Source: Squalus acanthias (Eukaryota). From it: a stretch of 64,000 nucleotides of DNA. The position numbers and the translations under genes were made by a program. Numbering within the stretch: position 1 is the stretch's first letter; every line of letters starts with the position of its first letter. Under the pieces are notes generated by a model. That model had not been told where the DNA came from, did no database searches, and saw only the letters and a program-made list of their open reading frames with translations. The stretch covers positions 54,622,001 through 54,686,000 of the forward strand of contig CM059437.1 of NCBI GenBank assembly GCA_030390025.1, given 5' to 3'. Shown here piece after piece: positions 14,022-62,770 of this stretch.

Positions 14022-14676
14022 TTACCGACCGACAGACCAGGAAACATTCGACACTTGCAGAGAATTAACCGTTTGGAGAAAAATATGGAAGCGGACACGG
14101 AGCTTTTTGCAAGAAATTTTATTAATATAGCTGAAAGATCTATTTGAGGTCGCAGGAGAAACTGAGTTTCACTATACCAATATATGGAATGACTAAGGCT
14201 GAATGAATCAAATGTAACAGTTGCTTGTTTCGACTTGTGATAGATATAAAATACTGCTGCGTGAAATCCCGCTGTGGGATGTCATGGTTGAACCTTTGTA
14301 CGAAATTCCATTGCTTCCTATTTGAATGGGAGAGTTAACCCTTTAAAAGCAGCAATCACAAATACATTTCAATCAAATATGTTAAATGTCAGTATCATAT
14401 CTCACAGAGCGATTTCACTGCAACTGTCTTTGAAAAATTGAATAAGTAAAATTTTCATTGTCCAGCTGAAGGTCACAGAAGAGAGCAAGATGTAACGATT
14501 CAATCATTGCACTGGGAGAGTACTGACGGTTGTGAGTTCAGATAGGGTCCCATAAATAAATGTCTCCGAATCTTTATATACATAGGCTTAAATCAGCCTT
14601 ATTATTTTATGCTATTATTTCACCTCACAATTGAAGAGGACCGAATCAATAAAATTAGACAAGTCCATTGACAATA

Positions 14677-15200
14677 GAAACATAGAAACATAGAAGATAG
14701 GAGCAGGAGTAGGCCATTCGGCCCCTCGAGCCTGCTCCGCCATTCGATGAGATCATGGCTGATCATCCAAATTCAGTACCCTGTCCCTGCTTTCTCCCCA
14801 TATCCCTTGATACCTTTAGCTTTAAGAAATATATCTAACTCCTTCTTGAATATATTTAATGACTTGGCCTCAACTACCTTCTGTGGTAGAGAATTCCACA
14901 GGTTCACCACTCTCTGGGTGAAGAAATTCCTCCTCATTTCTGTCCTAAATGGCTTACCCCTTATCCTTAGACTGTGACCCATGGTTCTGGACTCCCCGAC
15001 CATCGGGAACATCCTTCCTGCATCTAGTTTGTCCAGACCTTTCAGAATTTTATATGTTTCAATGAGATCCCCTCTCATTCTTCTAAACTCCAGCGAGTAT
15101 AAGCCCAATCGACCCAATCTCTCCTCATATGTCGTTCCTGCCATCCCAGGTATCAGCCTGGTGAATCTTCGCTGAACTCCTTCCATGGCAAGAACATCCT
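14677..15200 (-). mobile_element. Young CR1 3' end, part of an A-specific 1.1-kb composite insertion
   Basis: (CATAGAAA)n tail and an uninterrupted ORF2 C-terminus EDVLAMEGVQRRFTRL...GYGEKAGTGY. Very similar to 42789-43310. Confidence 0.92.
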
Positions 15201-15750: not shown

Positions 15751-16749
15751 CAGTGGATTAGCACCAATCTCCAACCACAGCTCTGCAAACTTGATGAGAA
15801 TTTCCTGTAAAGCTACTCTCGACAAATAGTTCCCTATATTTCCTGTTTTAAAAACACATTTTTGCCGTAAACTTTCCTCGCGATGAGTTATCTCTTGTTA
15901 TCCAATTGAAGAAATATTTTCCACACTGGTGGTCTGGAGAGTGTATAATATAATAGGTTAACAGCTTGGTGTGGTAAAGGTTATTAAGGAATGGTTAGTA
16001 TAGAGTGCTACAGTCAAAGCAGAAATTTAGAAAACGCAGTGTTACATTGGGCGTGGTTCGGCAGAAGGCTTGGAACATCCGATGTAAAATTATGAAAAAT
16101 AATCCAGAAGTCAGTAGTAATATCTGTCAATTATGGATTTATTCTGTGACATGGAGTCGAATACATGTTATAGATTAGGTTGTAGGGATTCTTTAGGCTA
16201 AGCTAATTAGCAGGAGGTGTCACTAAAAGGCAATTAGGAAGCATCAAAATGATTATATAAAGAAATATGGTTAGGTTGGAAGACAAATTGTCTGGTTTAA
16301 GTTGTTATTATTCTGGTAACGGTGTGGCCTTTTAGCCACACAATTGCCTTATCTGTACTATTCAGAAAGGAAATGAACTGTCACATTCCAGTGAGTATGA
16401 AGTATATGTGGTGCAACATTGTCACCTACTGGTATAGTAGCATATGACACACAAGGTTCACACTTAGAATTAACGGCATAGACCGCCTGTTATACACAGG
16501 TCCACTGAAGGCAATATAACTGGATGCCGAGCAGAGAGTATAACGGGCGGCCAAATACCATACCGCCGGTTCTGCGCTAACGCCCAATAACTTCGAATCT
16601 ATTGGGGTAGATATTCGATACAGCAGGCTATAACTATCCGTGACATATCATTTGGCTCATACTGCAGAGCCCCTCCCAATCAGCCCAGGTAGCGAAAGTG
16701 TGCCTTTAAGGCCCAGATGGCTCTTCCAATGACCAGTCGAGTAGAACAA

Positions 16750-17350
16750 TTTGCCTCCTCGTAGTGCTCCTCTGCTGTTCTCGGGCAATTCTTACTGGGA
16801 GAATAGTACATTGCGTCCGGGGTAGGCTTTCTCACCCAGAAGCCATTTATGTGATTTTCTTCCCCGATGAGGTCAGCGTGTTGGTACGAAGGCTTCTCTG
16901 CATGTGGTCACACATAATAGGTACATTCAGGGATTGGAAGCCGCTCCTGTCGATGTAGTTGAGAGGTTGTGGTGTGGGAATGCGCACAGCAGCATGCTTG
17001 TCCTCGATTGCAGCCTTGCAAAAACAAGCAACCCAGTAAAAGTAGGTGGCCATATCTTGCTGTTACCTTGCTATGTTGCCAAAGGTGATAAATTTGCCAG
17101 CTCTCCTGCAAAGCGCGTAAACAACATAATGCGTGCACAGCCGCTTCTACTGCATGGATGCTGTTGCAGAGATTGCTGACGGGTGCCTAGAATTACGCTG
17201 TGACACAAAGTTTGAGGGCGGTTATTACCTGCATAGCCACAGAGAACGCCTTGTGGGTAGATGAGCATGGCTACAGCTCGTCCTGCGGTAGGTAACAGAG
17301 CTACCCTCTTACCTCGTTGGTAATTTATGCGCATCTTATTCACAACTCCT
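16750..17350 (-). pseudogene. Fossil PIF/Harbinger DDE transposase fragment
   Basis: GELANLSPLAT and AAIEDKHAAVRIP...YIDRSGFQSLNVPIMCDH align with GDLANISQFAV and GTIDCTHVALRAP...RNRKGFHSLNVQLVCDH of ORF 22977-24137. Frameshifted. Paralog at ~55390-55990. Confidence 0.75.
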
Positions 17351-18564
17351 CATAAAAGTCCTCATATGGAGTAATAACTGATAGCCTGCATCCTTCTTAA
17401 AAGCTGCCTAAATCTTCTTTGCTCCATCATGTGCTGCTCCTGCTCCTCCATGATGTAAGTATACAGAGGTATGTCTATAGGGAATGTCATCCACAGGAGC
17501 CTGCTACTGAGAGAGTTCCTTCGTCGTGTATCATAGAGAATAACACAAACAGAAGTTTTAATTCATGATAATTAGTTAATGGAGGGAGTTTCCCTTCTGC
17601 AGTTTACACCCATGCTCATTATGTGTTCGCAGGAAATAAACCAGGATATCGCCAATGGTGACCACTGGTTAATGATCTGAAGCTTTAAAAACGACATCAG
17701 GGGGTTTCACAAATAGGGCTTGAAATTATTTAACTTTTCGGCAATTACTCCCAATTTCACCCTCTCACCGGTTCGCTGTGCAGCTGAAGGGTCTGACTAG
17801 CGATCCTTGTGACAGTCCCATTCAATGGGGTTTCTCGAATTGGAACTGAATGCACCCTAGTCTATTTTTGCAGAATTGCAAAATAAATGGCCAAAATTAG
17901 TGCTTAGAGGCACGTATTGTTTTAGGAATTAGTGCAGGAATGCTTAACATTTTCCTCTGTGCGCAGAACAGTTGATCTCATTTCAGGACATTTTAAGAAC
18001 GCTACAACAAGCCCCAGCGCCCCCGCTCCAGCAAAGGGAAAAGAGGGCGAAATTACTACTTCCTATCTTTATTCTCTGCTGGAAGTGCTCACCTACGGAT
18101 GGGCGGCGAGCTTAAGGCCAAATTCGCCTTTGACGCCACAATGGGAAAGCCCGTATGGTCTCAGGAAGGAATCTTGGCCACAGTGACAGGAAAGAGTATA
18201 CAGGTCTAGAGGAGAAATTTGTTAGAAAAAAGGTCGGGGAAAATAGAAACAATTGTACAGGATGCTAAAGGAAAATGACGCGCAGCAGAGCTGAAGCAAA
18301 ACGAAACAAAAAGAGGGAGAACAAAAATTGACCAATATACAATGGAAAGTCAAATTTCGAAAATATACTTTCACAAGTCCAGGCAGAAAAGATCCAAATC
18401 CCTTATCTATCCGAGCATTAGAGCAATTCTTTATGTTCTTTATCTTAACGAGGACACATTAATACACTAGTAATGAGGACAAGGGATCCTCCTTAAATTA
18501 TGGTTCCAGTGGACTACAAGTTTGAAACTGCTAAGAGGAAGACCGAGCCACAACCTGTCACATT

Positions 18565-21176: not shown

Positions 21177-22774
21177 GCTGAGGCCCCAATATACATCCCT
21201 GGGGAATGCCATTTGTCTTTTCCCGCCCATCAGTACACGAAACATTTATACCTACTCTATATCTCCTACCTCCCAATCAATTACCAATTAGTGGCTACCT
21301 TATATTTATGTCTCCCTGTTCTCGACTCATCCACAAATGGAAACACTTTATCCACGTTCCCCCTATCTAACTCCTTCATAATTTTAAAGACCTCAATCAA
21401 GTCTCCTTTTAGCATCCTCTTTCAGAGATAAGCGACCAGCCTGTATATTTTTTCCTGAAAGTTGCATCCTCCAAATTCTGTTAACATCCTTGAAACTCTT
21501 TTCTGAATTCTCTCCAGTGCTTCAATGTCTTTTTTCGAGCATGGAGACCAGAATACTGCAAAGTACTCCAAGTGTGTTCTCACCTAAATTCTATATAAAT
21601 GTAACATTACCTTTCTGCTTTTGTATTCTATTCTCTTAGAAAGATCCCCAGTACTTTGATTGCACCATTTATGCACATAACAACTTGTGCTGCTCCTTTT
21701 AGCGATTTATGCATCTGCAGTCCCAATCAGTCTGAACAAAGTAGATTATGCACTAAAAGTATACCGAGTTTGTGATTAGTGTTAAGGTGAATTTACGGAG
21801 TGCGATTCTTATCTGAGCGTCAGCGAATTTGTAGTTGAGTTGCTGCTAATATCGCTTGCTTCAATATAACTATTATTCAGCAATAATTAACAGAATCGAG
21901 TCGTTACTAAAGAAAGCATGCAATGGCAGAAATTGTACCGTGGTAGGTACGAGGTATCTAAAAGGAAGGCGGTCACAGAGTTTCTCCTGAATTTGTGTAA
22001 CCAGATGATTTAGAAAAATTATAACACGTGCTTTGAATTGTTCACATAAACACACGAACGCAAGGTTCAGCTTCTTGCCCACACGGAGGAAGTCAGTCAA
22101 GTGCGGTTTAAACAGAGTGCTGCGAGTTGGGTGAGTCAGGGAGTCAGGAGAAGACAGAAGACAGAGCGACGAAGGACAGAGTGGAGACCCTTTCCACCTC
22201 CACCACGCCTGCAGCTACAAGCTACAACTACAGCAACTTCTACTGCTGAGGTGCCATAGGGGAGAGAGGAGAGGGGAGAGGAAAGGAGACCAATAACAAC
22301 AACAGAGGGAAGCAATTCCATCACTGCCTCCCCAACTGGTCTCCATTACGAGAGAGGGAGAGAGGGGAAACAAAACCAACACCTGCTTGGAAGGAGGGAG
22401 AGCGAGCCATCGAGGAGAATAACATCTAGAGGTGGGTGTTAAAAAGGGCACTCTCCAAAAGACTTTGGGGTAAAAATTCACTTGGTTGCGCCTCCCGTTA
22501 GCGCCTTAAGAGGGCGCTAATGGGGCGTTAAGCCGCTAACGCCCGGGCGCAGCGCTGTTTGCGCCGCTCGAGAACTTAACTTGAGATTGTGTGGCGGCGC
22601 TAAAACTTACCGCTGCGACCACCTGCGCGCGCAGATTGTGACGTCATTCCATGGTGCAACGCCCTTGGGGCGCCCCGGAGCGGAAATTGAGTGGCGCCCC
22701 CTGCCTTACCGCCTGGCGCATCCAACGACCGGAAGACTGGAACGTTATCAATCGGTGTGGGGCTGGGGGGGCGC

Positions 22775-22782
22775 TATTTAAA
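22775..22782 (+). promoter_or_regulatory. Candidate TATA box (TATTTAAA) of the Harbinger transposase promoter
   Basis: ~200 nt upstream of ATG 22977, preceded by a G-rich box. Retained in all five non-autonomous copies. Confidence 0.5.
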
Positions 22783-22976
22783 GGGGGCCTCTTCCTGTCT
22801 TTTTCTGTGGTCGACATTTATGCACCACTCGTTCTGAGAGAGAGAGAGAGATTCGGAGAGAGAGAGAGAGAGACTTCTACATTGACTCAACATTTGTGAG
22901 GTAGTTTTGCCTAGTTCATCCTAACTTTGTTGCTACTTTAGTTGCTGTACCTCATTACTTTTCTGGCAAAGAGAAT

Positions 22977-24137
22977 ATGGGGGCTGCAATGATTGGGGGC
23001 GACGTCCTGCTCCAGCTGAATCGGAGGATAGTGAGACGCAGACAGAGAGTGGCAATAATGGCCAGACGGAGGAGGGCCATCAGGCGCATGTACAGGAGAG
23101 CTTACCCTCCCAGGGTATATCGTGAACAGCTCTCCTACATCCATATGTCCGAGGAGCTGTGTTTGCGAAGGCTGCGATTCAGCAAGGAGGTGGTCACTGA
23201 GCTCTGCCACCTGCTGCAGCCAGATCTGCAGCCTCAGCTGAGGTCCAGGACGTCTCTGTCGGTGGCAGTGAAGGTCACAGTGGCTTTGAACTTCTACGCC
23301 ACTGGCTCATTCCAAGCTGCTGTTGGGGACCTCGCCAATATCTCCCAGTTTGCGGTGCATCGCTGCATCCGGCAGGTCACCAATGCCCTCTTCAGAAGGA
23401 GACGAGACTTCATCTATTTCCCTATGACCCCAGACAAGCAGCGTGACCGTGCTCTGGGCTTTGCGAGGGTAGCGGGCTTCCCCATGGTGCAGGGCACCAT
23501 TGACTGCACGCATGTGGCTTTGCGTGCTCCGCGAGAGAATGCAGAGGAATTCAGGAACAGAAAGGGGTTCCATTCCTTGAATGTGCAGTTGGTCTGTGAC
23601 CACAGACAGGTGATACTCGCTGTCAATGCCCACTATCCGGGCAGCTGCCATGCTGCTTTCATCCTGCGCCAGACTACTGTGGCAGAAGTTTTCGAGGCAC
23701 CGCATCAGCCAGTTGGTTGGCTTCTCGGGGACAAGGGGTACGCATTGAGCACCTGGCTGATGACACCGCTCCGTACGCCAAACACCCCTGCTGAGCTGCG
23801 GTACAATGAAAGCCATCAAGCAACCAGGAACATTATTGAGCGCACAATCGGCGTGCTGAAACAACGGTTCCGCTGTCTGGACCATTCCGGAGGAGCCCTG
23901 CAGTACTCGCCTGAGCAAGTTTCGAACTTCGTAGTCGTGTGCTGCATGTTGCACAACATGGCAATCCTCAGGACCCAGCCAATGCCACCAGGCCTTGTAG
24001 CACCACCAGAGGAGGAGGAGGAAGAGGAGGAAGAGGACGAGGACGATGATCATCAGCAGCACCAAGGCAGGAGGGCGGCCCACAATGGTCAAACTGCAAG
24101 GGCCGTCCGTCAACGACTAATAGCAAGCCGCTTCTAG
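22977..24137 (+). CDS. Harbinger DDE transposase (HARBI1-like), 386 aa, open frame
   Basis: RLRFSKE, ALNFYATGSFQ, GTIDCTH, NRKGFHSLNVQLVCD, PGSCH, LLGDKGY, YNESHQATRNIIERTIGVLKQRFRCL, CCMLHN and an acidic tail. Confidence 0.96.
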   Translation: MGAAMIGGDVLLQLNRRIVRRRQRVAIMARRRRAIRRMYRRAYPPRVYREQLSYIHMSEELCLRRLRFSKEVVTELCHLLQPDLQPQLRSRTSLSVAVKVTVALNFYATGSFQAAVGDLANISQFAVHRCIRQVTNALFRRRRDFIYFPMTPDKQRDRALGFARVAGFPMVQGTIDCTHVALRAPRENAEEFRNRKGFHSLNVQLVCDHRQVILAVNAHYPGSCHAAFILRQTTVAEVFEAPHQPVGWLLGDKGYALSTWLMTPLRTPNTPAELRYNESHQATRNIIERTIGVLKQRFRCLDHSGGALQYSPEQVSNFVVVCCMLHNMAILRTQPMPPGLVAPPEEEEEEEEEDEDDDHQQHQGRRAAHNGQTARAVRQRLIASRF

Positions 24138-24431
24138 GGCCCCTGCCATTGCTACAAACACTAATCAACCCAGCACGCAACCCCTAAGCCGGCCAAGGCA
24201 CCAATAATTCCAACCACCAGCCATGTATATTTTGAATACAGAAACTTATTTATTTTACAAACTCTGTGTGTGTCAATTCCTCATGACAAACTCATAGAAA
24301 TAAACACAAAAAAACAGTCAATAACATAACTGGTTCTCACAACCTGGAGATAATGTCCAAAACACTAAACAAAAGTTGGACCATGAACCTCGGCCTTTAA
24401 TAAAAAAATGACCAGCATTTTGGCACACCTC

Positions 24432-25429
24432 CTACTTTTTGCCCTTCGAGGGTGATCTCCTTCCCTTGTGCACTTCCCCCCTTCTAACCCTACTGCTCCT
24501 CCGTAATGGGACCTCAGTGGCTGCAGCAAGGCTGGTGGAAGGCTGCTGCTCGTCAGACCCTGACACTGCAGATGCCCCTGAAGGACGGCCTCGACCACTT
24601 CTGGGCCTGGAGGGCCCGGCTGCAGACTGCACCAACTCTGCATGGGCGGCAGCAGTCTGTCCTACAGGCGGTGGCAAGTGCAGTGGAGAAGTGACAGTGT
24701 TGGCAGCAGGAATGCTGTCATCGTGAGAGAGGACAGCAACTCCCTGCTCGCCCGACACACTGGCACTCCCACGGGGCAGCACTTCAGCATCTGGAGCAAT
24801 TTGCCGGAGAACAGATTGCTGGCCTGCTGCGGCGCGGTGACAGCCCCGGGGACATGTGCACGAACCATCGAGGATGGCAGCAGTCAGTGCTCGCGTGGCC
24901 TCAATCTGAGTCTGCATGAGAGCAGTCTCAGATGGGTTCCTGGCAGCCAGTGACTGAATTGCAGCACTAAGCTTTAGTGTGGCATCCGCCTGTGCTACAG
25001 CGAAGTGCTTCACACTCCTTGCCAGTGATTCAATGCATTCTGGCACCCTTCCCACTGCACCCATGAGCTCAGTGTGCATGCCCACCGCCTGGCTGTTCAT
25101 TTCTGCAATCAGCCGCTCCTCCTCTGCGTCCATTGCAGTAGGAGTGTCTGGCATACTCTCCCTCTGGGGAGAAGGCCCCCGTTCTTCCCTACCCCCCCCC
25201 CCACCCCCCCCCCCCCCATGGCGTTGCTGCAGCCCGCTGGGTCCTGGAGCTTCACCATCATCAGCCCCTTCCCCCCTGCTCCCCTCCGGGGAAGGCGTGT
25301 TCCCAGTGTGGGCATGGGCTTCCTCGGGAGAGGATGGCACTGATGCTCCGGCTTCCTCTTCCTCCTCAGCTGCAGCATCACTCCCAGTGGCAACTTCAGG
25401 GCCCGTCTCCTCAGCTGGTGAATCACCAT
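24432..25429 (-). CDS. Harbinger Myb/SANT partner gene, exon 3 (low-complexity and coiled-coil C-terminus)
   Basis: Acceptor CCTGCTTTCAG at 25440-25430. Phase-1 entry gives DGDSPAEETGPEV..., continuous with ORF 24432-25340 and ending in a basic tail RRSSRVRR...KGKK. Confidence 0.7.
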
Positions 25430-25588
25430 CTGAAAGCAGGGAGGTACAAGAGTGGCTTTAGCGTGAGGACAGGGTGGCAGTAAGGGAGGAATAAGTGCAG
25501 CGAGTTAGCAAGTTGGATTGAAAGTGTCAAAGGCTGGTATTGTGAGGGACAAGTGGAAGGACAGAGGACAAAAAGGTGATGACCTTAC

Positions 25589-25729
25589 CATTGCTGTCCA
25601 CAACGGGGTCGGCGTCTCCAGTGGCGACGGGACCGTGTGGACGCGCTCCTCCAGATCGCTGAGGGGTTGCAGCTGAAGCCGCCCTCCACCCGTCCGTTGC
25701 TGCTGTCTCCGATTATGAGCCAGCTTAGC
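25589..25729 (-). CDS. Harbinger Myb/SANT partner gene, exon 2 (apparent frameshift)
   Basis: Acceptor TTTTCTTGCAG at 25740-25730, AKLAHNRRQQQRTGGG...LSDLEERV, donor GTAAGG at 25588-25583. Confidence 0.75.
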
Positions 25730-25760
25730 CTGCAAGAAAAAGGACAGCATCTGAGTAAAT

Positions 25761-25927
25761 ATACAGCCATGGTCTTGCCTGATGTGCCTCCCATAGGTGA
25801 ATAGCCCTTACTGTATGCAGCCATGCTCTTGCCTGATGTGCCTCCCATAGGTGAATAACCCTTACTGTATACAGCCATGGTCTTGCCTGATGTGCCTCCC
25901 ATAGGTGAATAGCCCTTACTGTATGCA
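25761..25927. repeat. Three tandem 54-bp repeats in intron 1 of the Myb/SANT gene
   Basis: Unit ATACAGCCATGGTCTTGCCTGATGTGCCTCCCATAGGTGAATAGCCCTTACTGT, repeated three times with few differences. Confidence 0.92.
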
Positions 25928-26067
25928 AAGTGTGGAATGTGTGTGTGTGTTTGATGAAAGGGCCATAGGTGTTGGATGAGTGTTGTGCATTGGGATTTTA
26001 AGACCCTCTGGCCATAGAGTGAGGTTGAGATGGAGGGATGGAGAGGTATTGAGAAAAAGCCACTCAC

Positions 26068-26304
26068 CCTGACGACCCGAGTGAGGTCGTTGAACTTTTT
26101 GCGGCATTGAACATGGGTCCTGGGCACCATGCTCCTGGAGGAGACGCTCTGAGCCACCTCCCTCCACACTCTTCTGAACTCGCGTGGCAAAGGCCTCCTG
26201 CCACTCTCCGGGAACAGCATGCATCGTCTGCGCTCCACTGCGTCAACCAGAGCATCCAAGGCCCGCTCGGTGAAGCGATGAGCGCGTTCTCTCACCCTCT
26301 CCAG
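26068..26304 (-). CDS. Harbinger Myb/SANT-like DNA-binding domain, exon 1
   Basis: RAHRFTERALDALVDAV...VWREVAQSVSS...RTHVQCRKKFNDL is a trihelix pattern. Donor GTGAGT at 26067-26062. The presumed start codon position holds CTG (26304-26302). Confidence 0.88.
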
Positions 26305-27291
26305 GCTTGGCAGCAAAATGGATTACAGGTCTCTCCAGGCTGAGATTCAAGGCTGCAATGAGCAGGGTGTGGCTGGGGAGCAAGTGCCCCCCCCCCGCTT
26401 TAAGAAGTGTCCGGCGCCATTGTGGCTGTGTTCCCTCGCTAACTGGCAGCAGCTGCGCTGCGCTCGTGCGCTGAGTTAGCGCCTCACTCCTTGGCCTTTG
26501 CGCCTTAAGAGAGGTGTGCAGCGCCTAATTTAGCGCTCCACTCACCTCCCGGGGCGGTAAAAGTGAAGTTTCCTGTCAGTGCTGATAATTAGCGCCAGGC
26601 GCTAATATTTGCGTCCGGACGATATTTGCGCCCCAAATGGGGCGCGACCTAATTTCTACCCCTTTGTATTTGAGGTGGGGGGAGGAAAGAAGAAGGAGAA
26701 GACCGGGATAACAAGGGGTGTGTGTTGGTGTGTGTGGCTCTTGCTAATAACTAGGCCGCACACACCATCAACAAGCACCCCTTGCCTATTGCTTCACCTG
26801 GGACAGCTGGAGCTGCCCAGGCAAAGTCATCAATCTATTTCCCCATCTATAACATCGTTAAGACCTGGTGGTGGACTGAGCCTGGGCATGTCCAGCTTTA
26901 TTTTCCCAGGTGAAGACATCTTCTCCCCCCACCAGAAGAACATCAACAAAGACTATAATTAACATCGGAGAGTGCCCCCCCCCCTGGAAGCACCCACCCA
27001 CCCACTATCCTGAGTGGCGAACAGGCCCCTGCGGCCTCCCTCCTTCCTTCCCCCTATCTCTCTCTCTCTCTCTGACTCTCTCTCCAACGAGGCACCTCTA
27101 ATTTTATTAATTCCCCAATTGAGCAGAGAGGAGAAGGCCCCTCTCCCAATTCCAATCATCAAAGGGAGAGGTGTGCCTTCATTTTTAAAACAACCCCCTC
27201 TGCTCGGGAAAAGACAAAAAAAAACAAGGCCATTTCAACCATCACCCGGCCTGTGACTTGGGGTGAGTGCAGCCCTTTATACCACCTCAGT

Positions 27292-28761
27292 ATGACGAGC
27301 ACATCTTCGCCGGCGACGGGGCAAGCAAGGTCGTACGCGGGTGTGGCAGCCACGGCCACAGCTGGTCCCGCTGCTTCTACTGCCCCGTCGCCTTTCAGGC
27401 TATTGACCAAAAAGCTGGGGGTGAAGAGCTACACTCACCCCAACATGACCATAGAGGCTTGCGTCAAAGCCATGGCTGGGGTAGTCAACCCCTCAGCCAT
27501 CATAGCGGCCTCTAAAATGTACGGGAAGGCTGTGTTCTTCCTGGGGTCGGAGCGGGCGGTGTCCCTGGCCGTCACCAAGGGGCTCACCGTGGGCGGGACC
27601 TTCCTGCTGGTGGATCCGCTCGAGTCCACCGCGCAGCGAATCATACTATCAAACGTCCCGTCCTTTGTTCCGGTTGAGCTCCTCCTCCCCCACCTACGTC
27701 AACTGGGGGAGGTGAGGTCGGTGATTAATCCGATCCCGCTCGGCTGCAGGGAGGCCAGCCTCCGGCACGTCTTCTCCTTCCGGCGCCAGCTGTTTATCCA
27801 GCTGGTGCGGGAGGAGGACACGGAGGGCGCGTTTAACGTTCAACACGAGGGGACCGCCTACCGCGTCTTCTGGACGTCGGATGGTGTGCGGTGCCACGCC
27901 TGTAAGGTGGTGGGGCACATAAGAAAGAACTGCCCCGCTTTCAAGGCCGCCAAAACATCTGAGGCGGCCAAGGCTGGCGCTGCTGCCGCTCCTCCGCCTG
28001 TTTCTGTCCGCGCGTCCGCGACACCCGATGTGCGGTCGACGCCGGAGGTCAACGCGGTCGCGGACTCCGGCAGAGGGGAGAGGGAGCGTCCGATCGGAAA
28101 GAAGGCGCGGAGGAAAAGTAAACACCTTCAGGCGGGACCCCTAGATGTACACGACGATTTACCCGAGCTTACGCCCCCGTTCCTTGCGCGGGTGGTGGCG
28201 GAGTTCGAGAGTGCGAGGGGCCTCGTGCCCGGGCCTGCGGCCGCAACCGCCGAGACGGCAAAATCGAGACCTGCGGCCGTGACCGGGCCCGGGTCCCCCG
28301 AGCAAACCAATCGACAGGGGGGAGCGGAGGTGGAGGCCTCGGTACACATGGAGGTCTCCCAACCTCCGTGTCCCACCACACTGAAAAGGAGACGTGACGC
28401 CCTGGAGGAGGAGGAGGACCATGAGGAACAGAGTCCCCCCTTGCAAGGGGAGTCGTCGCTCGCCGCGGGGGCTGCGCCCACCCCCCCCACCAACACTGTC
28501 ACCGACATCCGGCAGGGGTCGCCTGTCCCCCAGGAGGGTACGACAGATGAGTCTGTCCAGCCTGTGCCACCGGGGGATGGGGAAGAGACTCTGCTCATGG
28601 GGTGGGCCGCGGAACTACCCGCGGAGGGAAATTATACCGAACCGTTGTTTCTCGCCAGGTCGAGCATCCTGGGGACAGAGGCGGGCAAGGCCGATGAGGC
28701 TGAGCCCGCCGTATATGGTCAGGACTACTCCCAATGCTGCTCGACCTGCTGGAGCAATTAA
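27292..28761 (+). CDS. Tx1-type LINE ORF1 (RRM-like region plus CCHC zinc knuckle); C-terminus frameshifted, continuing to ~29400
   Basis: AASKMYGKAVFFL, RIILSNVPSFV, HVFSFRRQLFI and CHACKVVGHIRKNC (CX2CX4HX4C). Confidence 0.85.
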   Translation: MTSTSSPATGQARSYAGVAATATAGPAASTAPSPFRLLTKKLGVKSYTHPNMTIEACVKAMAGVVNPSAIIAASKMYGKAVFFLGSERAVSLAVTKGLTVGGTFLLVDPLESTAQRIILSNVPSFVPVELLLPHLRQLGEVRSVINPIPLGCREASLRHVFSFRRQLFIQLVREEDTEGAFNVQHEGTAYRVFWTSDGVRCHACKVVGHIRKNCPAFKAAKTSEAAKAGAAAAPPPVSVRASATPDVRSTPEVNAVADSGRGERERPIGKKARRKSKHLQAGPLDVHDDLPELTPPFLARVVAEFESARGLVPGPAAATAETAKSRPAAVTGPGSPEQTNRQGGAEVEASVHMEVSQPPCPTTLKRRRDALEEEEDHEEQSPPLQGESSLAAGAAPTPPTNTVTDIRQGSPVPQEGTTDESVQPVPPGDGEETLLMGWAAELPAEGNYTEPLFLARSSILGTEAGKADEAEPAVYGQDYSQCCSTCWSN

Positions 28762-29863
28762 ATCAAGGTCCCCGGTCCGCTGGGTCGGAGGGTGGTGGCG
28801 GTGAAGGGGAAGGCCCCCTGACTCCATCTCCGACGCTGGCGCCGGGTTGTTGGGGGAAGTAGCATTAATGTACTCCCCGGTTTCTCCGTGCACCCCGCTG
28901 CCGGGGGCAGAGGGGGGCCCCGAGCCGCCGCCGCTTCCTGACCCGGCGCCTCTGGAGGTGCCCAGGGAGGACTCCTCTGCCGCCGATCCTGGGGGTGGGA
29001 GCGGGGCAGAGGTAGGGCCAGCTGATGGCGACACCCCGGAGGAGGACGGGGACCCGGCGGAGGACACTGAGGAAGACATTTACTCCATCGCCAGCGAGGC
29101 GGCGGATACCCTCGTGACTCCTCCGGGTCCCCCCACATCCCCGTTGTGGAACTCCGGGACTTTGTGGCCATGGGCCAGGGTCGCCAGGATATTATCCGGC
29201 TGGCCATTGATAATTGGTCGGATCTGGCGCTGCTCGTTTGCTCCGTCCGCGCCGCCGTCAAAACCATGGGCGAGGACGGGGGCGTGGGCCCAGCCAAGCG
29301 GCGTCGGATCCGGAAGTTCCTCGCTGGGCTTAGAAGGGAGTGGCGGTTGACTAGCGGCCGCGCTCCCTCCTCCCGTTTGAGTAAGGTAGAGGTTGCACTA
29401 TGCTCTTGTCATGAAGATAACCATAGCCAGCCTCAACATCAACGGCAGCAGAGAGGCACGCCGTAGATTTAATAACTTCTCGGCCCTTCGGGAGTGCGGT
29501 TTCAACAGAATGCTGCGAGTTGGGTGAGTCAGGGAGTTAGGTGAGGAGTGGAGAGAGGAGCTCCCTTGCTTCGCCTTTGTTTTTCCTAACTTTTCAACCT
29601 GTAGGAATTGGTTCTTACTGTACACCAAGTAAAGAGTCCAAGAGCGGGAGCAGTCAAACGACCACAACTGAGAAACTTCTTAAGTAACGTCACATCCAGG
29701 GAAGGAGCTGATTGGTAAGTAGGACCTGGTGAGTATTTCTACAGTCCAGTCGTTAAAGTCAAAGTAAGGTCTCTTGTTTAGAGTAAGTAGTGTTTAAAGG
29801 AAAGTAAGCTCCCTAGTGTATGTAATATTTTTTAATTTAAAGGGTGTAAATTAAGGGTGGGAC

Positions 29864-30815
29864 ATGGCAGGGCAGCTTGGCTGCGTGGAGTGCTCCTCCT
29901 GTGCGATGTGGGAAGTCAGGGACACTTTTGGTGCCCAAGACGAACACATGTGCAGGAAGTGTCTCCAGCTGCAGCTACTCGAAATCCACGTTTCGGAGCT
30001 GGAGCTGTGGCTGGAGTCACTGTGGAGCATCCGCGAAGCTGAGATCTTCGTGGATAGCACGTTTAATGAGGTGGTCAAACTAGAGGTAAAGAGTGCAGGC
30101 AGGCAGGAAATGGGTGAACGCCAGACAGAGTAAAAGAACTGGGAAGGTAGTGCAGGAGTCCCCTGGGTCCATCTCACTCTCCGACAGATTTTCCATCTTG
30201 ACTACGGCTGGGGGAGATGGTTTCTCAGGGGAATGCAGCAAGAGCCAAGTCCATGGCACTATGAGTGGCTCAGCTGCACAGGAGGTGAGGAAAAGGAGTG
30301 GGAGAGCAATAGTGATAGGGGATTCTATCGTAACGGGAACAGATAGACGTTTCTGTGGCCGCAGACGTGACTCCAGCATGGTATGTTGCCTCCCTGGAGC
30401 CAGGGTCAAGGATGTCACTGAACGGCTGCAGGGCATTCTGAAGGGGGAGGGCGAAGAGTCAGAGGTCGTGGTTCACATTGGTACCAACTACATGGGTAGA
30501 AACAGGGATGAGGTCCTGCAACAAGAATTTAGGGAGCTGGGTAGCAGATTAAAAAGCAGGATCTCAAAGGTTGTAATCCCTGGATTACTCCCGGTGCCAC
30601 GTGCTAGTGAGTATAGGAATAGGAGGATAGAGCAGATGAATGCGTGACTAAAGAGCTGGTGCAGGAGAGAGGGCTTTAGTTTCCTGGATCACTGGGTCTG
30701 CTTCTGGGGAAGGTGGGACCTGTACAAGTCGGACGGGTTGCACCTGAACCGGAACGGGACCAACATACTTGCGGGGAGGTTTGCTAGTACTGTTGTGGGG
30801 GGAGGGTTAAACTAA
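29864..30815 (+). pseudogene. CR1 ORF1 (Cys-rich zinc finger/leucine zipper plus SGNH esterase), with frameshift and stop
   Basis: CSSCAMWE...CRKCLQLQLL, IVIGDSIV, CLPGARVKDV, VHIGTN and DGLHLN. Frame change at ~30120 and TGA at 30645. Confidence 0.88.
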
Positions 30816-30919
30816 CTTGGCAGAGGGATGAGATACGGAGTGAAGCTATAGTTGGGGGTGATGCACAGACAAATATAGAGGAAAAAACAAGTCAGCCTGG
30901 AAGGCAGAGCGAATATGTA

Positions 30920-33900
30920 ATGGCACAAGGGAGTATGGCAAGGCTGGATGGCATTTATTTTAATGCAAGGAGTCTTGCGAGTAAGGCAGATGAATTTAAG
31001 GTGTTGATGAACACATGGGAGTATGATATTGTTGCTATCACAGAGACATGGTTGAGGGACGGGCAGGACTGGCAGCTCAATATTCCGGGGTATAGAATCT
31101 TCAGGCGTGACAGAGGGGGTGTAAAAGAGGGGAGGGTGTCGCAATATTAATCAAGGAGTCAATTACTACTGTAAGGAGTGATGATATCTTAGCAGGTTCC
31201 TCTAATGAGGCCATATGGGTAGAACTTAACAACAAAAAGGGGGTAAGCATAGTGCTGGGAGTGTACTATAGGTCCCCAAACACTCAGGGGAAGATAGAGG
31301 AACAGATATGTAGGCAAATCTCAGAGAAGTTTAGAAATAATAGGGTAATAATAGTTGGGAATTTCAACTGTCCCAATATTAACTGGGATAGTCAGAGTGT
31401 GAAAGGCTTAGAGGGTGCGGAATTCTTAAAGTGCATCCAGGAGAGCTTTCTGAGCCAGCATGTAGAATGTCCGACAAGAGAGGGGGGGGTGGTACTGGAC
31501 CTAATTCCAGGGAATGTAGCCGGGCAAGTGGCAGAAGTAGGAGAGCATTTTGGTGACAGTGACCACAATTCGGTGAGATTTAAGGTAGTCATGGAAAAGG
31601 ACAAAGATGGACCGGAAATAAAGGTTCTAAATTGGGGGAAGGCCGATTTTAATATGATAAGGCAGGATCTGGCCAAAGTGGACTGGGATCAGCTACTTGC
31701 AGGAAAATCCACATCAGAGCAGTGGGAATCTTTCAGAAAGGAAATAGAGAGAGTACAACGCCAACATGTTCCCATAAAGGTCAAGGGTGGAACCAACAAA
31801 CCCAGGGAAACCTGGATGTCAAAGGAATATACAAGAATGGATGAGGGAAAAAAGGGAGGCTTTTGGCAGATACAAACGACTAAAAGCAGTGGAAGCCCTA
31901 GAGGAATATAGAAAGTGCAGGGGGGGTACTTCAAAAAGAAATTGGAGAGCGAAGAGGGGGCATGAAAAAACATTGGCGGGCAACATAAAGGAAAATCCCA
32001 AGGTGTTTTATAAGTATATTAAGGGAAAGAGGATAACCAGGGAAAGAGTAGGGCCCATTAGGGACCAAAGTGGCAATCTGTGTGTAGAGCCGGAAGATGT
32101 AGGTGAGGATCTAAATGAATATTTTGCATCTGTGTTCACTATGGTGAAGGACGATGTAGGCATAGAAATCAGGCAGGGGGATTGTGATATACTTGAACAA
32201 ATTAGCATTGAGAAGGAGGTAGTACTTGCGGTTTTAGCGGACTTAAAAGTGGATAAACCCCAGGCCCTGACGAGATGTATCCCAGGCTCCTGTGTGAGGC
32301 AAGGGAGGAGATTGCAGGGGCTCTGACACAAATTTTCAGACGCACTCTGGCCACAGGGGAGGTGCCAGAGGAGTGGAGGACAGCTAACGTAGTACCATTG
32401 TTCAAGAAGGGTAGTAGGGATAAACCAGGGAATTACAAGCCAGTGAGCCTAACATCAGTGGTGGGGAAATTATTGGAAACAATTCTGAGGGACAGAATCA
32501 GTCTCCACTTGGAGCGGCAAGGATTAATCAAGGATAGTCAGCATGGCTTTGTCAGGGGGAGATCATGTCTAACTAATTTGATTGAATTTTTCGAGGGGGT
32601 GACTCGGTGCGTGGATGAGGGTAGTACAGTTGATGTGGTCGACATGGACTTCAGTAAGGCTTTTGACAAAGTCCCACATGGAAGACTGGTCAAGAAGATA
32701 AGAGCCCATGGGATCCAGGGCAATTTGGCACATTGGATCCAAAATTGGCTTCGTGGCAGGAGGCAGAGGGTGATGGTCGAAGGTTGTTTTTGTGACTGGA
32801 AGCCTGTGTCCAGTGGTGTAGCGCAGGGATCGGTGCTGGGTCCTTTGCTGTTTGTAGTGTACATTAATGATTTAGATATGAATGTAGGAGGTATGATCAG
32901 TAAGTTTGCAGATGACACGAAAATTAGTGGTGTGGTAAATAGCGAGGAAGGAAGCCTCAGGCTACAAGACGATAGAGACGGGTTGGTCAGATGGGCAGAA
33001 CAGTGGCAAATGGAATTTAACCCTAAAAAGTGTGAGGTGATGCATTTTGGGAGGACTAACAAGGCAAGGGAATACACAATGAATGGTAGGACGCTAGGAA
33101 GTACAGAGGATCAGTGGGACCTTGGTGTGCATGTACATAGATCCCTGAAGGCAGCAGGCCAGGCAGATAAGGTGGTTAAAAAGACATATGAGATACTTGC
33201 CTTTGTAGGGAGAAATTAATTCACTCCAATCTGTGTTGATAGGTAAAAGCAAACAGTTTATTAATGTTCAGAGATCTTTGGGAGAAGCATCATAGACCTT
33301 ACCCGGCCTAGTGACCACGGCTTCTCGACCTCCCGTTGTCAGTTACAACCTTTTATTTAAGAATTATCCAATCACATTGTTAAAAATATCACATGATTAC
33401 AATTATGTCAATTCAAACTAAACCGGTTAATTCGTTATATTTCTTATCTTTGTCAGCTACAAACTAAAAACAATTATCCAATTACGTAGATATGTTGCAA
33501 GCATGTTTGTTGGGAATCACATTCTATGTTTTGCCTGGGTGCTGGGTCTAAGCTCATTCTCACATTTGTCCATTGTATTTCTGTACAGATGCGCATTGTA
33601 TTCTGTCCTTGAATGCTGCTAGGCATCCAATCCTTATCAATCCACCTGGTTGCTTCTTATTCTATTTCGGACATAACTTCCATTCCCTTTACAGCTAAGA
33701 GAGGTTTAATTTAATTTAATTTATCTTGAGTTCAAATTAACCCTTTCACCTTCATTAGCTAAGGCATAGAATGTAAGAGCAGGGAGGTTATGATGGAGCT
33801 GTACAAAACGCTAGTTAGGCAACAGCTGGAATACTGTGTGCAATTCTGGTCGCCACACTATAGGAGGGATGTCATTGCATTGGAGAAGGTGCAGAGGAGA

Positions 33901-34293
33901 TTCACCAGGATGTTACCTGGGCTGGAGCGCTTCAGCTATGATGAGAGACTGGACAGGCTGGGGTTGTTTTCCTTCGAGCAGAGAAGGCTGAGGGGGGACC
34001 TGACTGAGGTGTACAAAATTATGAGGGGCATAGATAGGGGAGATAGAAAGGAACTTTTCCCATTAGTCGAGGGGTCGATCACCAGGGGGCATAGTTTCAA
34101 GGTAAGGGGCAGGAGGTTTAGATGGGATTTGAGGAAAATATTTTTCACCCAGAGGGTGGTTGGAATCTGGAACTCACTGCCTGAAAGGGTGGTAGAGGCA
34201 GGAGCCCTCATAACATTCAAGAAGCATTTAGATGAGCACTTGAAACGCCATACCATACAAGGCTACGGACCAAGTGCTGGAAAATGGGATTAG
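30920..34293 (+). pseudogene. CR1 ORF2 (APE endonuclease plus reverse transcriptase), frameshifted
   Basis: YFNARSL, ITETWL, GNFNCPNINW, SDHN, DFSKAFDKVPH, QGSVLGPLLF and KFADDT. Confidence 0.92.
33204..33748 (-). mobile_element. Solo LTR, 545 bp
   Basis: TG...CA termini with short imperfect inverted ends (TGTAGGG / CCCTTTCA). 4-bp TSD CCTT at 33200-33203 and 33749-33752, whose removal restores CR1 ORF2. Minus-strand AATAAA at 33257-33262 and a TATA-like motif at ~33351-33360. Confidence 0.85.
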
Positions 34294-34373
34294 AATAAAC
34301 GGGGCTTGATGGCCGGCGCGGACACGATGGGCCGAAGGGCCTCTTTCTGCGCTGTATAACTGTATAACTCTAT

Positions 34374-35267
34374 GGGGTAAAAATTCACTTGGTTGCGCCT
34401 CCCGTTAGCGCCTTAAGAGGGCGCTAATGGGGCGCAAAGCCGCTAACGCCCGGGCGCAGCGATGTTTGCGCCGCTCGAGAACTTAACTTGAGATTGTGCG
34501 GCGGCACTAAAACTTACCGCTGCGACCACCTGCGCGCGCAGATTGTGACGTCATTCCATGGTGCAACGCCCTTGGGGCGCCCCGTAGCGGAAATTGAGTG
34601 GTGCCCCCTGCCTTACCGCCTGGCGCTTCCAACGACCAGAAGACTGGAACGCTATCAATCGCTGTGGGGCTGGGGGGGGGCGCTATTTAAAGGGGGCCTC
34701 TTCCTGTCTTTTATTGTTGGTGGCATTTTTGAACTACGCATTCTGAGAGAGAGAGGGAGAGACTTCTGGAGAGATTCAACGTTGTGTGAAGGAGTTTTGG
34801 GTATTGAGCAGCACTTTGCAGGTTCATTTTGATTTGCCATTCCTTGTATCGATTTAGCAGAGACTGTGGGAGCTGCACTCTGAGCTCTTTGCCTGGTACT
34901 TTCCATTGTTCTTTCCAGCACATTTGATGTGCAAGTCTCTCCAGGCCGAGATTCAAGGCAGCAATGAACAGGATGTGGATGGAAAGCAAGATTAACCATT
35001 CCCTTTAAGAACTGCCCCGTGCCATTGTGTGTGTGTTCCATTGCTGACTGACATTACATGAGCTTCGCCAGCGCTCTGAGTTAGCGCCTCACTGCTCGGC
35101 CTTTGCGCCTTAAGAGAGGTGTGCAGCGCCTGCTTTAGCGCTCCACTCACCTCCCGGGGCGGTAAAAGTGAAGTTTCCTGTCAGTGCCGATAATTAGCGC
35201 CAGGCGCTAATATTTGCGTCCGGACGATATTTGCGCCCCAAACGGGGCGCGACCTAATTTTTACCCC
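34374..35267 (+). mobile_element. Non-autonomous Harbinger element M1
   Basis: GGGGTAAAAATT...AATTTTTACCCC with TAT TSD. Near-identical to 9266-10159. Confidence 0.95.
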
Positions 35268-35278
35268 TATGACTCTAA

Positions 35279-36179
35279 GGGGTAGAAATTAGGTCGCGCC
35301 CCATTTGGGGCGCAAATATCGTCCGGACGCAAATATTAGCGCCTGGCGCAAATTATTGGCACTGACAGGAAACTTCACTTTTACCACCCCGGGAGGTGAG
35401 TGGAGCGCTAAAGCAGGCACTGCACACCTCTCTTAAGGCGCAAAGGCCGAGCAGTGAGGCGCTAACTCGGAGCGCTGGCGAAGCTCATGTAATGTCAGTC
35501 AGCAATGGAACACACACACAATGGCACGGGCCAGTTCTTAAAGGGGATGGTTAATCTTGCTTTCCATCCACATCCTGCTCATTGCTGCCTTGAATCTCGG
35601 CCTGGAGAGACTTGCACATCAAATGTGCTGGAAAGAACAATGGAGCGTACCAGGCAAAGAGCTAAGAGTGCAGCTCCCACAGTCTCTGCTAAATCGATAC
35701 AAGGAATGGCAAATCAAAATGAACCTGCAAAGTGCTGCTCAGTACCCAAAACTCCTTCACACAACGTTGAATCTCTCCAGAAGTCTCTCCCTCTCTCTCA
35801 GAATGCGTAGTTCAAAAATGCCACCAACAATAAAAGACAGGAAGAGGCCCCCTTTAAATAGCGCCCCCCCCCCCCCCCCCCAGCCCCACAGCGATTGATA
35901 GCGTTCCAGTCTTCTGGTCGTTGGAAGCGCCAGGCGGTAAGGCAGGGGGCGCCACTCAATTTCTGCTACGGGGCGCCACAAGGGCGTTGCACCATGGAAT
36001 GACGTCACAATCTGCGCGCGCAGGTGGTCGCAGCGGTAAGTTTCAGCGCCGCCGCACAATCTCAAGTTAATTTCTCGAGCGGCGCAAACATCGCTGCGCC
36101 CGGGCGTTAGCGGCTTTGCGCCCCATTAGCGCCCTCTTAAGGCGCTAACGGGAGGCGCAACCAAGTGAATTTTTACCCC
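35279..36179 (-). mobile_element. Non-autonomous Harbinger element M2
   Basis: Inverted copy, GGGGTAGAAATT...AATTTTTACCCC. Flanks are TAA and TAT, so the TSD is mismatched. Confidence 0.95.
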
Positions 36180-36190
36180 TATGACTCTAA

Positions 36191-38550: not shown

Positions 38551-38740
38551 TCATCACAGAGGACTGGCTGCCAGAAAACTTGTCACGGAGCTGCCTAGCG
38601 CGCTGCCTATGGTCGAAAACAACGATTTTATTCCTACAACGCACAGGAAAAGCAACTACACAAATAACATGAAATCGAATACAGCGATTATGGGCTTATG
38701 CTTGGTTAGGAGGAAATAACTTTGCACAACCCGATATTGT

Positions 38741-62680: not shown

Positions 62681-62770
62681 CAGTGGTTCCCAACCTGTGG
62701 TTCGCAGACCACCAGTGGTCCGCGAGGGTACTGCAGGTGGTCCGTGGAAAAATGGTCCAAACCTCTAAAA
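62681..62770. mobile_element. hAT/Charlie-like transposon terminus; the other end was not found in the window
   Basis: Starts CAGTGGTTCCCAACCT, a typical hAT TIR, exactly at the break in A/B colinearity. Repeated GTGGTCCG subterminal motifs. Preceded by CCATAGAG, a candidate 8-bp TSD. Confidence 0.7.

Follow-up and report, generated by a model that had tools for sequence, protein, structure and literature searches.

The insertions of a Harbinger DNA transposon family in a 64,000-nucleotide stretch of Squalus acanthias DNA (the window) have palindromic flanks around a variable A/T triplet. They are best explained by the known extended target preference of the PIF/Harbinger superfamily, here with a less strict centre, together with a chance match between this target and some CR1 octamers, the CR1 tails being a passive sink; the probability of this reading is put at roughly two in three. 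A palindromic extended target is a known trait of the superfamily and not new, and dedicated targeting of LINEs is not shown by the tiny sample of four loci. The best reading of the family itself is an ordinary two-gene Harbinger of a cartilaginous fish, with its MITEs, related to the lineage of zebrafish Harbinger3_DR.

Exactly six copies lie in the window according to a TIR scan and to sensitive blastn searches that used the element ends as queries. One measures 4.2 kb and carries both a DD35E transposase and a Myb gene, and the other five are MITEs of 0.9 kb:

6459 to 7355, plus strand: E1, MITE of a divergent subfamily (85-87% to the other copies); TSD TAA/TAA
9266 to 10159, plus strand: E2, MITE within the octamer tail at the 3′ end of a CR1 on the minus strand; TSD ATA/ATA
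22467 to 26662, plus strand: E3, full-length Harbinger of 4,196 bp, 12-bp TIRs with one mismatch; TSD TTT/TTT at 22464-22466 and 26663-26665, flanks AAAGAC and GTATTT
34374 to 35267, plus strand: E4, MITE; its host is the tail of the CR1 located at about 29493-34373; TSD TAT/TAT
35279 to 36179, minus strand: E5, MITE with unmatched triplets, TAA left and TAT right
35268 to 35278 and 36180 to 36190: identical 11-bp direct repeat on both sides of E5
36191 to 37083, minus strand: E6, MITE from a distinct sub-lineage, inserted downstream of the E4 site by one octamer; TSD TAA/TAA

The TIRs are 12 bp in length with 0 to 2 mismatches in 6/6 copies and start with GG or GGG; the 3′ TIR of E1 begins GTG. 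Some copies differ by 2-4%, which shows recent Harbinger activity in this fish. Older Harbinger-type remnants were located at 16617-17366, 55260-56008 and 38290-38632; their ends were sought and none was definable, so they were excluded as extra target sites.

Two convergent genes were identified in E3:

22977 to 24137, plus strand: transposase ORF of 386 aa, uninterrupted, with D176, D252 and E288 as DD35E
24432 to 26322, minus strand: Myb/SANT gene, Pfam Myb_DNA-bind_5 (E=1e-8)

The transposase matches Pfam DDE_Tnp_4 (E=6.7e-38), and its closest relatives, with an identity of up to 66%, come from sharks and rays and are HARBI1-like. Against solved structures, it gave no match at an E-value below 0.08. 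For the Myb gene, splice sites and frames predict three exons at about 26322-26068, 25729-25589 and 25439-24432. The gene appears damaged, as the predicted structure has no in-frame ATG upstream of the Myb domain and the splice phases of exon 2 disagree. Its product matches P0008 with 43% over 75 aa. A search of Rfam gave no match.

Matching 3-bp A/T duplications were present in 5/6 copies (TAA, ATA, TTT, TAT and TAA). The flank-TSD-flank strings listed by an earlier, sequence-only reading of this DNA are all in place: AAA-TAA-GAG at 6456, GTC-ATA-AAA at 9263, GAC-TTT-GTA at 22464/26663, CTC-TAT-GAC at 34371 and CTC-TAA-GTC at 36188/37084. Its statement that the TSDs are any WWW rather than strictly TWA also holds, with WWW in 5/5 matching TSDs and TWA in only 2/5, compared to 21% of WWW sites by chance. 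A TSD of 5 bp (CWWWG) with TIRs of 11 bp was considered and rejected; it fits E3, E4 and E6 and fails at E1 and E2. E2 is weak evidence in this respect, since its +1 base is probably mutated, and E1 favours 3 bp over 5 bp.

The host sequences and a second, paralogous block of the window were delimited as follows:

10163 to 10700, minus strand: CR1 3′ end hosting E2 in its tail, found by tblastn; the tail continues at about 9250-9265
26663 to 29492, beginning at about 22146, plus strand: retroelement hosting E3, with a leader, a gag-like ORF and a truncated ORF2 start
29493 to 34373, plus strand: near-full-length, broken CR1 LINE with esterase ORF1, endonuclease, RT, 3′ hairpin and octamer tail
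39956 to 62680, plus strand: block B, paralogue of 419-22145 (93-96%) without E1 and E2

The host of E3 is represented in block B too, by a copy of 86% that lacks E3. Empty sites are thus available for E1, E2 and E3; the elements are absent at all three, and a single copy of the triplet was found at two. At the empty paralogue of the E2 site (9263), near 49932, the triplet is ATG and not ATA as had been read earlier.

The host of E3 is a putative Tx1/L1-like retroelement; the database relatives of its ORF are all unnamed. The gag-like ORF has a weak zinc knuckle (zf-CCHC, E=0.0073, below the cut-off), and a second copy of the element lies at 61198-62680 (79-86%). The CR1 at 29493-34373 matches Lipase_GDSL_2, Exo_endo_phos_2 and RVT_1 in Pfam. 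Its 3′ hairpin has a folding energy of -27.3 kcal/mol (z=-2.1). E4-E6 interrupt its tail, which extends to about 37095. The element thus shows an ORF2 with APE and RT, a 3′ hairpin and an octamer tail of the ATTCTRTG type by which CR1 tails are defined (PMC2612034); of the E2 host, only a 3′ fragment is present. E1 lies in a decayed CR1 ORF2 and not in a tail, as judged by a tblastn match across the empty site in block B (47845-48096). That all six copies lie within other TEs, as the sequence-only reading had stated, is unremarkable: the TE share of the element-free window is at least 53%, so that P for 4 of 4 loci is at least 0.08, and the observation was rejected as evidence.

For the analysis of the target motif, 10 half-sites from five sites at four loci were stacked (8 if the array is counted once). 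The half-site consensus is G-W-S-T-Y-T, resulting in a symmetric target of about 15 bp. G at +1 was found in 8/10 half-sites, W at +2 in 10/10, T at +4 in 10/10, Y at +5 in 9/10 and T at +6 in 7/10. The proposed bias for C(-1)/G(+1) is therefore present in the window (8/10 against a background of 0.20, P=8e-5; 6/8 with the array counted once, P=0.0013). The motif SWC-WWW-GWN proposed earlier is right in being palindromic with C/G beside an A/T triplet; as written it fits only 3/5 sites and is too short. S at ±3 (7/10 half-sites, P=0.056) is not significant alone, and the strongest position, A(-4)/T(+4), had been overlooked. T at +4 is also invariant with the array counted once (8/8) and survives correction over positions: four random WWW sites would agree fully at one or more of 10 positions with P=0.0012. 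If only the two non-tail sites are considered, at least one such position is expected with P=0.17. Since 6/10 half-sites come from tails, the consensus is to some degree circular. With a matrix trained on the two non-tail sites only, all three tail sites rank within the best 0.2-0.5% of WWW sites, and leave-one-locus-out ranks are 0.1-1.5%.

Maize PIF, which prefers CWCTTAGWG, had been suggested as the model. The extended, A/T-centred preference is indeed comparable, but zebrafish Harbinger3_DR is closer. As cited in two secondary sources, PMC3016246 and PMC3432063, its target is AAACAC-CWG-GTCTTT, a palindrome of 15 bp with half-sites GTSTTT. The E3 site agrees with these flanks at 11/12 positions, which is reached by 0.02% of 10,358 WWW sites. 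Over the four loci, 31/48 positions match (P at most 2.5e-6; the background mean is 3.6/12 per site). The two non-tail sites by themselves reach 17/24 (P=7.5e-5), a score that rests mostly on E3, as E1 has 6/12, reached by 11% of WWW sites. The elements themselves are also very similar (4,204 and 4,196 bp, both with 12-bp TIRs, DDE_Tnp_4 and Myb_DNA-bind_5). In contrast, the TSD is CWG in Harbinger3_DR and WWW here (CWG in 0/5), and the flank preference of the shark family seems looser, with W at +2 and Y at +5. The published passages on the Harbinger3_DR target mention no link to CR1 tails.

It is very improbable that only a WWW or C-WWW-G preference exists and that small numbers produced the longer motif and the link to tails by chance. 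There are indeed only four loci, the motif was derived from the same sites on which it is judged, and the finding was selected for looking striking; the match to an independent published consensus and the invariant T at +4 after correction nevertheless argue against such an artefact.

The family has the features of the PIF/Harbinger superfamily (PHIS), namely a DDE_Tnp_4/HARBI1-type transposase with HARBI1-like matches, a Myb/SANT second gene, short G-starting TIRs, a 3-bp TSD in 5/6 copies and an extended preference, the latter seen at five sites only. In plants such extended targets span 9 bp, in vertebrates 15 bp (PMC2836001). The TSD of the narrow-sense PIF/Harbinger group, TWA (PMC4482050), accounts for 2/5 TSDs. 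Harbinger3_DR is listed as NuwaI-2_DRer in PMC4482050; of the NuwaI characters, the GGG TIR start, two ORFs and a length of about 4.4 kb fit, whereas the CWG TSD was found in 0/5. The NuwaII group is defined by the target C|TNA|G (PMC4482050). It resembles the shark family in the C before and the G after the triplet (8/10 half-sites here), GG-starting TIRs, two ORFs and the same ambiguity between 3-bp and 5-bp TSDs, but TNA was found in only 2/5 sites and the bias here extends to +4..+6. Core transposase blocks are identical to the shark protein at 47/92 positions for Harbinger3_DR and 46/92 for NuwaII-4_XTro, by hand counts on 2 of 34 rows of Fig. S3 of PMC4482050, a figure in which the TWA group is not represented. 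In the family tables of the same paper, a word search found no TSD written WWW. Maize PIF/mPIF and rice Ping/mPing, in which excision is usually precise (PMC2836001), are similar in their 3-bp A/T TSD, extended target and MITE derivatives; they differ in a 9-bp preference and a near-strict TTA/TAA (45/46 insertions; PMC4561436).

The sequence-only reading had regarded the CR1 tail repeat as an abundant, renewable landing pad, because four of six copies lie in tails. The count of copies is correct; only two tails are involved, and since three of the four tail copies share one of them, the proportion is 2/4 loci. The interval to which the claim was attached, 22464-26665 (E3), is outside any CR1 tail. 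CR1 tails comprise 0.6% of the DNA, yet contain 10 of the 22 perfect ANWC-WWW-GWNT sites (11-mers) and 20 of the 136 NWC-WWW-GWN sites. Two tail hits in four loci exceed the supply by length or WWW (P=0.0004). Compared to motif supply in the window, the excess is weak or absent (P 0.01-0.6 over seven motif definitions): P was 0.012 for the earlier motif, 0.024 for Harbinger3_DR scores of at least 8/12, 0.065 for the non-tail matrix and 0.62 for the 11-mer. These results are nearly unchanged with block B left out. The tails are thus a landing pad in the passive sense of holding 10/22 of the best-matching sites; an excess beyond motif supply is not demonstrated, and we infer only that they may be renewable.

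True targeting, in which the family would be adapted or tethered to the 3′ ends of LINEs as safe, renewing sites and use them beyond motif prediction, is considered improbable. It is favoured by 2/4 loci and 4/6 copies in so small a part of the DNA, by the residual excess under some motifs (P 0.01-0.07), by the presence of at least two sub-lineages in one tail and by the TATGACTC octamers, of which the 55-kb element-free window contains only two, both occupied (2/2 against 0/8 for the remaining tail loci; P=0.022 in a post hoc Fisher test). However, the excess is gone with the 11-mer motif, 8/10 tail loci are empty, and E1 and E3 lie outside tails with the same flank pattern, which moreover matches the consensus of a zebrafish relative defined without CR1. 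Dada and Pokey are likewise DNA transposons found in multicopy host sequence (PMC3706591), but Dada is strictly site-specific in RNA genes, its copies being confined to one position of the multicopy target, whereas 2/4 loci here are outside the repeat. Among the freely accessible papers searched, none reports Harbinger insertion in CR1 tails in its title or opening abstract.

In the PIF/Harbinger superfamily, the Myb protein binds the element ends, the transposase carries out the cut-and-paste reaction, and the extended target preference depends on proteins that the element itself encodes. Under the preferred reading of a passive, sequence-matched sink without a dedicated target, the transposition complex would read both flanks symmetrically, whereas the centre could be any A/T triplet. 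Tails made of HTCTATGA-type CR1 octamers are nearly palindromic around TAT and therefore fit the target by chance, the ACTCTATG variant best, and this fit would be enough to explain repeated landings in CR1 tails. With a period of 8 bp and a half-site of 6 bp, the unit next to an insertion would stay usable, and repeated use of neighbouring octamers would produce MITE arrays with a spacing of 11 bp, as at 34374-37083. Against this reading, sites that score as well are empty, with 12/12 at 51458 and 10/12 for the tails at 39711 and 61535, and the tail excess persists under the motifs that are less circular (P=0.012, 0.024 and 0.065). A passive fit predicts the occupancy ACTCTATG > ATTCTATG > TTTCTATG and none in TTCTGTGA units, which have no WWW centre.

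At the supported level, the family adds one example of Harbinger3_DR-like flank recognition, in a cartilaginous fish and with a different central triplet, which suggests that flank reading and choice of the centre can change separately. A 2022 survey found no Harbinger in the elephant shark and called for checks in other cartilaginous fish (PMC9179366). It is unlikely that the family shifted its centre from CWG to a WWW matching TCTATGA CR1 tails, with LINE tails as the main site genome-wide and octamer-phased MITE arrays seeded there. This would be a DNA transposon living on the newly written ends of a retrotransposon and possibly crippling the CR1 3′ end on landing. If tail use dominates genome-wide, a DNA transposon would depend on a LINE, which is rare, and MITE arrays could arise by this route.

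The array at 34374-37083 contains copies of at least two sub-lineages in one tail: E4 and E5 belong to the same sub-lineage, while E6 has eight otherwise private states in common with E1. The unmatched triplets of E5 and its 11-bp repeat flanks were not mentioned in the sequence-only reading. Duplication of E6, in tandem or by assembly, was rejected as the origin of E5, since the two differ at 31 of 891 columns, spread along the whole length, and the diagnostic states of E6 are absent from E5. Conversion of E5 by its inverted neighbour E4 was rejected as well, as they have no private changes in common. Three hits in one tail have P 0.002 to 0.23, depending on the sharpness of the matrix.

A local hotspot is unlikely as a full alternative; copies would gather by hopping, by recruitment through resident subterminal GCGCC repeats or by recombination, with the tails as two lucky events. 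The E5 junctions without a normal TSD, the common sub-lineage of E4 and E5 and the GCGCC-rich subterminal regions (9-12 and 6-9 motifs against 0.56 per kb elsewhere) are consistent with it, but E4 and E5 share no private change, E6 is of the other sub-lineage and the motif bias persists with the array counted once. It supplements the passive-sink reading more than it replaces it. Tandem formation by repeated insertion is general for TEs with a site preference (PMC5932611). P-element and other double-insertion dimers are similar in having a strong site and tandem copies separated by target sequence (PMC5932611); their junction is one TSD, whereas the junction here is TSD + 5 bp + TSD, the two TSDs being one octamer period apart.

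The window was compared with itself, scanned for TIRs and searched sensitively using the ends of the element, which gave exactly six family members:

6459-7355, MITE (E1)
9266-10159, MITE (E2)
22467-26662, element with transposase and Myb/SANT gene (E3)
34374-35267, MITE (E4)
35279-36179, minus strand, MITE (E5)
36191-37083, minus strand, MITE (E6)

All five tested features of the PIF/Harbinger superfamily were found. The E3 transposase is open (386 aa), matches Pfam DDE_Tnp_4 (E=6.7e-38) and carries the residues D176, D252 and E288. Of 356 relatives at E up to 1e-30, the best are HARBI1-like shark and ray proteins, with 45-66% identity for the top ten, which makes a cartilaginous fish the most likely source of the window. 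The second gene, convergent to the transposase, encodes a Myb/SANT protein (Myb_DNA-bind_5, E=1e-8) and looks damaged, since its domain is not preceded by an in-frame ATG and the inferred exon 2 has conflicting splice phases. Both proteins are described as required in PIF/Harbinger, the Myb protein binding the ends (PMC2836001). GCGCC motifs, for which a binding role may be inferred, number 9-12 and 6-9 in the two subterminal regions compared to 0.56 per kb elsewhere.

The five other copies are all 0.9 kb in size. E2, E4 and E5 are 97.5-97.8% similar to each other, E6 is 96.3-96.8% similar to these and E1 85-87% to all. The ends are shared with E3 (the 5′ 330 bp differs at 11-17 positions for E2, E4, E5 and E6), while the middle is mostly without match to it. 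Compared to the other MITEs, E1 (6459-7355) is a mosaic in divergence, with ∼79-80% identity over the 5′ 400 bp, 94% in its central part and 90% towards the 3′ end. This suggests that subfamilies have recombined or that change was specific to the ends. Intron 1 of the Myb gene in E3 contains a 54-bp unit repeated 3.1 times (25760-25924), with a donor-like site in each unit. Older Harbinger families have left decayed transposase remnants at 16617-17366, 55260-56008 and 38290-38632 (minus strand), which are 35-39% identical to the protein of E3; element ends were sought for these remnants and not found.

Every flank-TSD-flank string quoted in the sequence-only reading is present in the window, and its statement that the TSD is any WWW rather than strictly TWA was confirmed by the matching triplets of five copies (TAA, ATA, TTT, TAT and TAA; TWA in 2/5). 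The triplets of E5 are unequal (left TAA, right TAT) and two identical 11-bp spacers flank this copy. As the TIRs start with G, E3, E4 and E6 can also be read as having a 5-bp CWWWG duplication, a reading that does not hold for E1 and E2. For NuwaII, the ambiguity between a 3-bp and a 5-bp duplication was likewise left open (PMC4482050).

Empty sites were available from a 20-kb-scale segmental duplication (block A, 419-22145; block B, 39956-60810), which is 93-96% identical and differs in later insertions. Every copy of the family is located within block A or after it. Block B contains none and is thus without E1 and E2; the E3 host has an 86% copy without E3. The empty sites are one TAA for E1, ATG for E2 and one TTT for E3. 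Harbingers can excise precisely (PMC2836001), so the absence of an element from the paralogue is no strict proof of later insertion. E2, at a distance of ∼2% from its siblings, nevertheless postdates the split of the blocks.

For the analysis of the target, ten half-sites (read outward from the triplet) from the five regular sites were compared to a background of 10358 WWW sites. G at position +1 was found in 8/10 half-sites (background 0.20, P=8e-5), followed by W+2 in 10/10 (P=0.008), S+3 in 7/10 (P=0.056), T+4 in 10/10 (P=5e-6), Y+5 in 9/10 (P=0.011) and T+6 in 7/10 (P=0.009). T+7 (4/10) was not significant. With the array E4-E6 (three copies in one CR1 tail) counted once, G+1 was found in 6/8 (P=0.0013) and T+4 in 8/8 (P=6e-5). 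An invariant position anywhere among ten has P=0.0012 for four random sites and P=0.17 for the two non-tail sites only. The C and G next to the triplet in the palindrome proposed from sequence (SWC-WWW-GWN) are supported by the G+1 bias; with T+4 invariant, the target is longer than reported.

The zebrafish element Harbinger3_DR has the target AAACACCWGGTCTTT (PMC3016246; PMC3432063), which gives the half-site GTSTTT. Its flanks are matched at 6 (E1), 6 (E2), 11 (E3), 8 (E4) and 8 (E6) of 12 positions, compared to a background mean of 3.6. The sum has P of at most 2.5e-6 for four loci and 7.5e-5 for the two non-tail loci; singly, the scores of E1 and E2 are equalled by 11% of WWW sites. A 15-mer of the Harbinger3_DR type, but with WWW at its centre, is the better description of the target, and the preference is real but mostly expected. 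The sequence-only reading gives the target of maize PIF as CWCTTAGWG. A 9-bp preference as such was confirmed (PMC6327408; PMC2836001); the element proteins determine the extended preference, which spans 9 bp in plants and 15 bp in vertebrates (PMC2836001). The top unoccupied targets on the derived half-site, 51458 (12/12) and 11705 (11/12), are both outside CR1 tails, each with a second good site overlapping 6 bp off.

Besides the flanks, the build of Harbinger3_DR (4204 bp, 12-bp TIRs, DDE_Tnp_4 and Myb_DNA-bind_5; PMC4482050 supplement) is much like that of E3. The transposase core blocks have 47/92 identities to Harbinger3_DR and 46/92 to NuwaII-4_XTro, a hand count on two of 34 rows picked by eye which is no substitute for a tree. 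PMC4482050 defines three named subgroups by the TSDs TWA, CWG and C|TNA|G, and the family fits none of these. A word search of the family tables in that paper, one page of which is a scan without text, found no TSD given as WWW, NWN or TAT. The family is not a site-specific element of the Dada kind (PMC3706591).

The sequence-only reading regarded CR1 tails as a landing pad. Four of the six copies are indeed in tails, but only two tails are occupied. That all six lie within other TEs carries little weight, since TEs make up 53% or more of the window without the elements. The host of E1 is a CR1 ORF2, and that of E3 the leader of a gag-bearing retroelement which we take to be Tx1-like. The tail set, picked out by eye, consists of 14 tails at 10 separate loci and comprises 329 of 55,299 bp (0.6%); four 3′ ends, two of them degenerate and two truncated, were left aside.

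Share of motif sites in CR1 tails and P of at least 2/4 loci in tails
WWW: 84/10358, P=0.0004
Motif of the sequence-only reading (SWC-WWW-GWN): 4/88, P=0.012
NWC-WWW-GWN: 20/136, P=0.11
ANWC-WWW-GWNT: 10/22, P=0.62
Harbinger3_DR match of at least 8/12: 5/75, P=0.024
GWSTYT, at least 9/12: 13/95, P=0.09
GWSTYT, at least 10/12: 5/17, P=0.34
GWSTYT, at least 11/12: 1/6, P=0.13

With block B excluded, P was 0.03-0.57 across the seven motifs other than plain WWW. When only E1 and E3 were used to train a matrix, the three occupied tail sites ranked in the top 0.2-0.5%, the tails carrying 11% of the weight (P=0.065). The tails are thus enriched over length, and sequence fit accounts for most or all of this enrichment; a small residual excess is conceivable. 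CR1 tails are passive matches, and the landing-pad claim stands to this extent only. Only two TATGACTC octamers exist in the element-free window and both are occupied, whereas the other tail loci are empty (8/8; Fisher P=0.022, post hoc), which suggests that a tail variant is the good target, not CR1 tails as a class. The canonical CR1 octamer is ATTCTRTG (PMC2612034); its TGT form is without a WWW centre. A title-level literature search, with Repbase and subscription papers outside its range, turned up no account of Harbinger insertion into CR1 tails. The observation is partly confirmed and its interpretation partly supported.

The WWW duplication, the flank bias and the subterminal GCGCC motifs were established directly in the window. 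Both flanks would be read symmetrically, and near-palindromic CR1 octamers would fit the target by chance. A neighbouring site would survive insertion, since the octamer period (8) exceeds the half-site (6).

After removal of E4-E6, the array tail has two sites, TAT and TAA, at a distance of 8 bp, in which E4 and E6, from different sub-lineages, are regular insertions. E5 is not a copy of E6 (31 differences) and no private changes are common to E5 and E4, so that at least three insertions into this tail took place. The E5 junctions may represent a third octamer with one TSD base mutated; at 6-8 non-CpG changes per 778 sites this is roughly a 0.5-5% event. They may also reflect an 11-bp (3+8) duplication from strand transfer at two adjoining units, or unequal exchange between alleles with copies one unit apart. 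Compared to the motif prediction, three hits in one tail have P of 0.002-0.23 (nine settings), depending on motif sharpness. Repeated insertion at strong sites is described as a general route to tandems (PMC5932611). By a change in the 3′ TIR of E4 (35256-35267), all 12 bp agree with the 5′ TIR. As a result, E4 and E5 have the same 23 bp at their right ends, spacer included, which might be a scar of recombination or a substrate for it.

ORF2 of the array-hosting CR1 is broken by an A+T-rich 0.5-kb insertion (33219-33745), and the gag-like ORF, in its block-B copy, by an insertion at 62681-62730 with a presumably hAT-like terminus. A ∼40-bp motif opening the CR1 at 29493 is present five times (22100-22145, 29493-29547, 60765-60810, 61060-61146 and 61198-61232). 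Both Tx1-like leader copies begin directly behind it, and in block A two copies bracket the Tx1-like piece. This pattern may point to a retroelement targeting the CR1 5′ end or to a shared leader. A young CR1 (42884-44944, minus strand; open ORF2 portion of 687 aa) is inserted in block B only. It shares 89-95% identity with the CR1 ends found at 14674-15200 and 38749-39696, which is a sign that CR1 with TTTCTATG tails was recently active.
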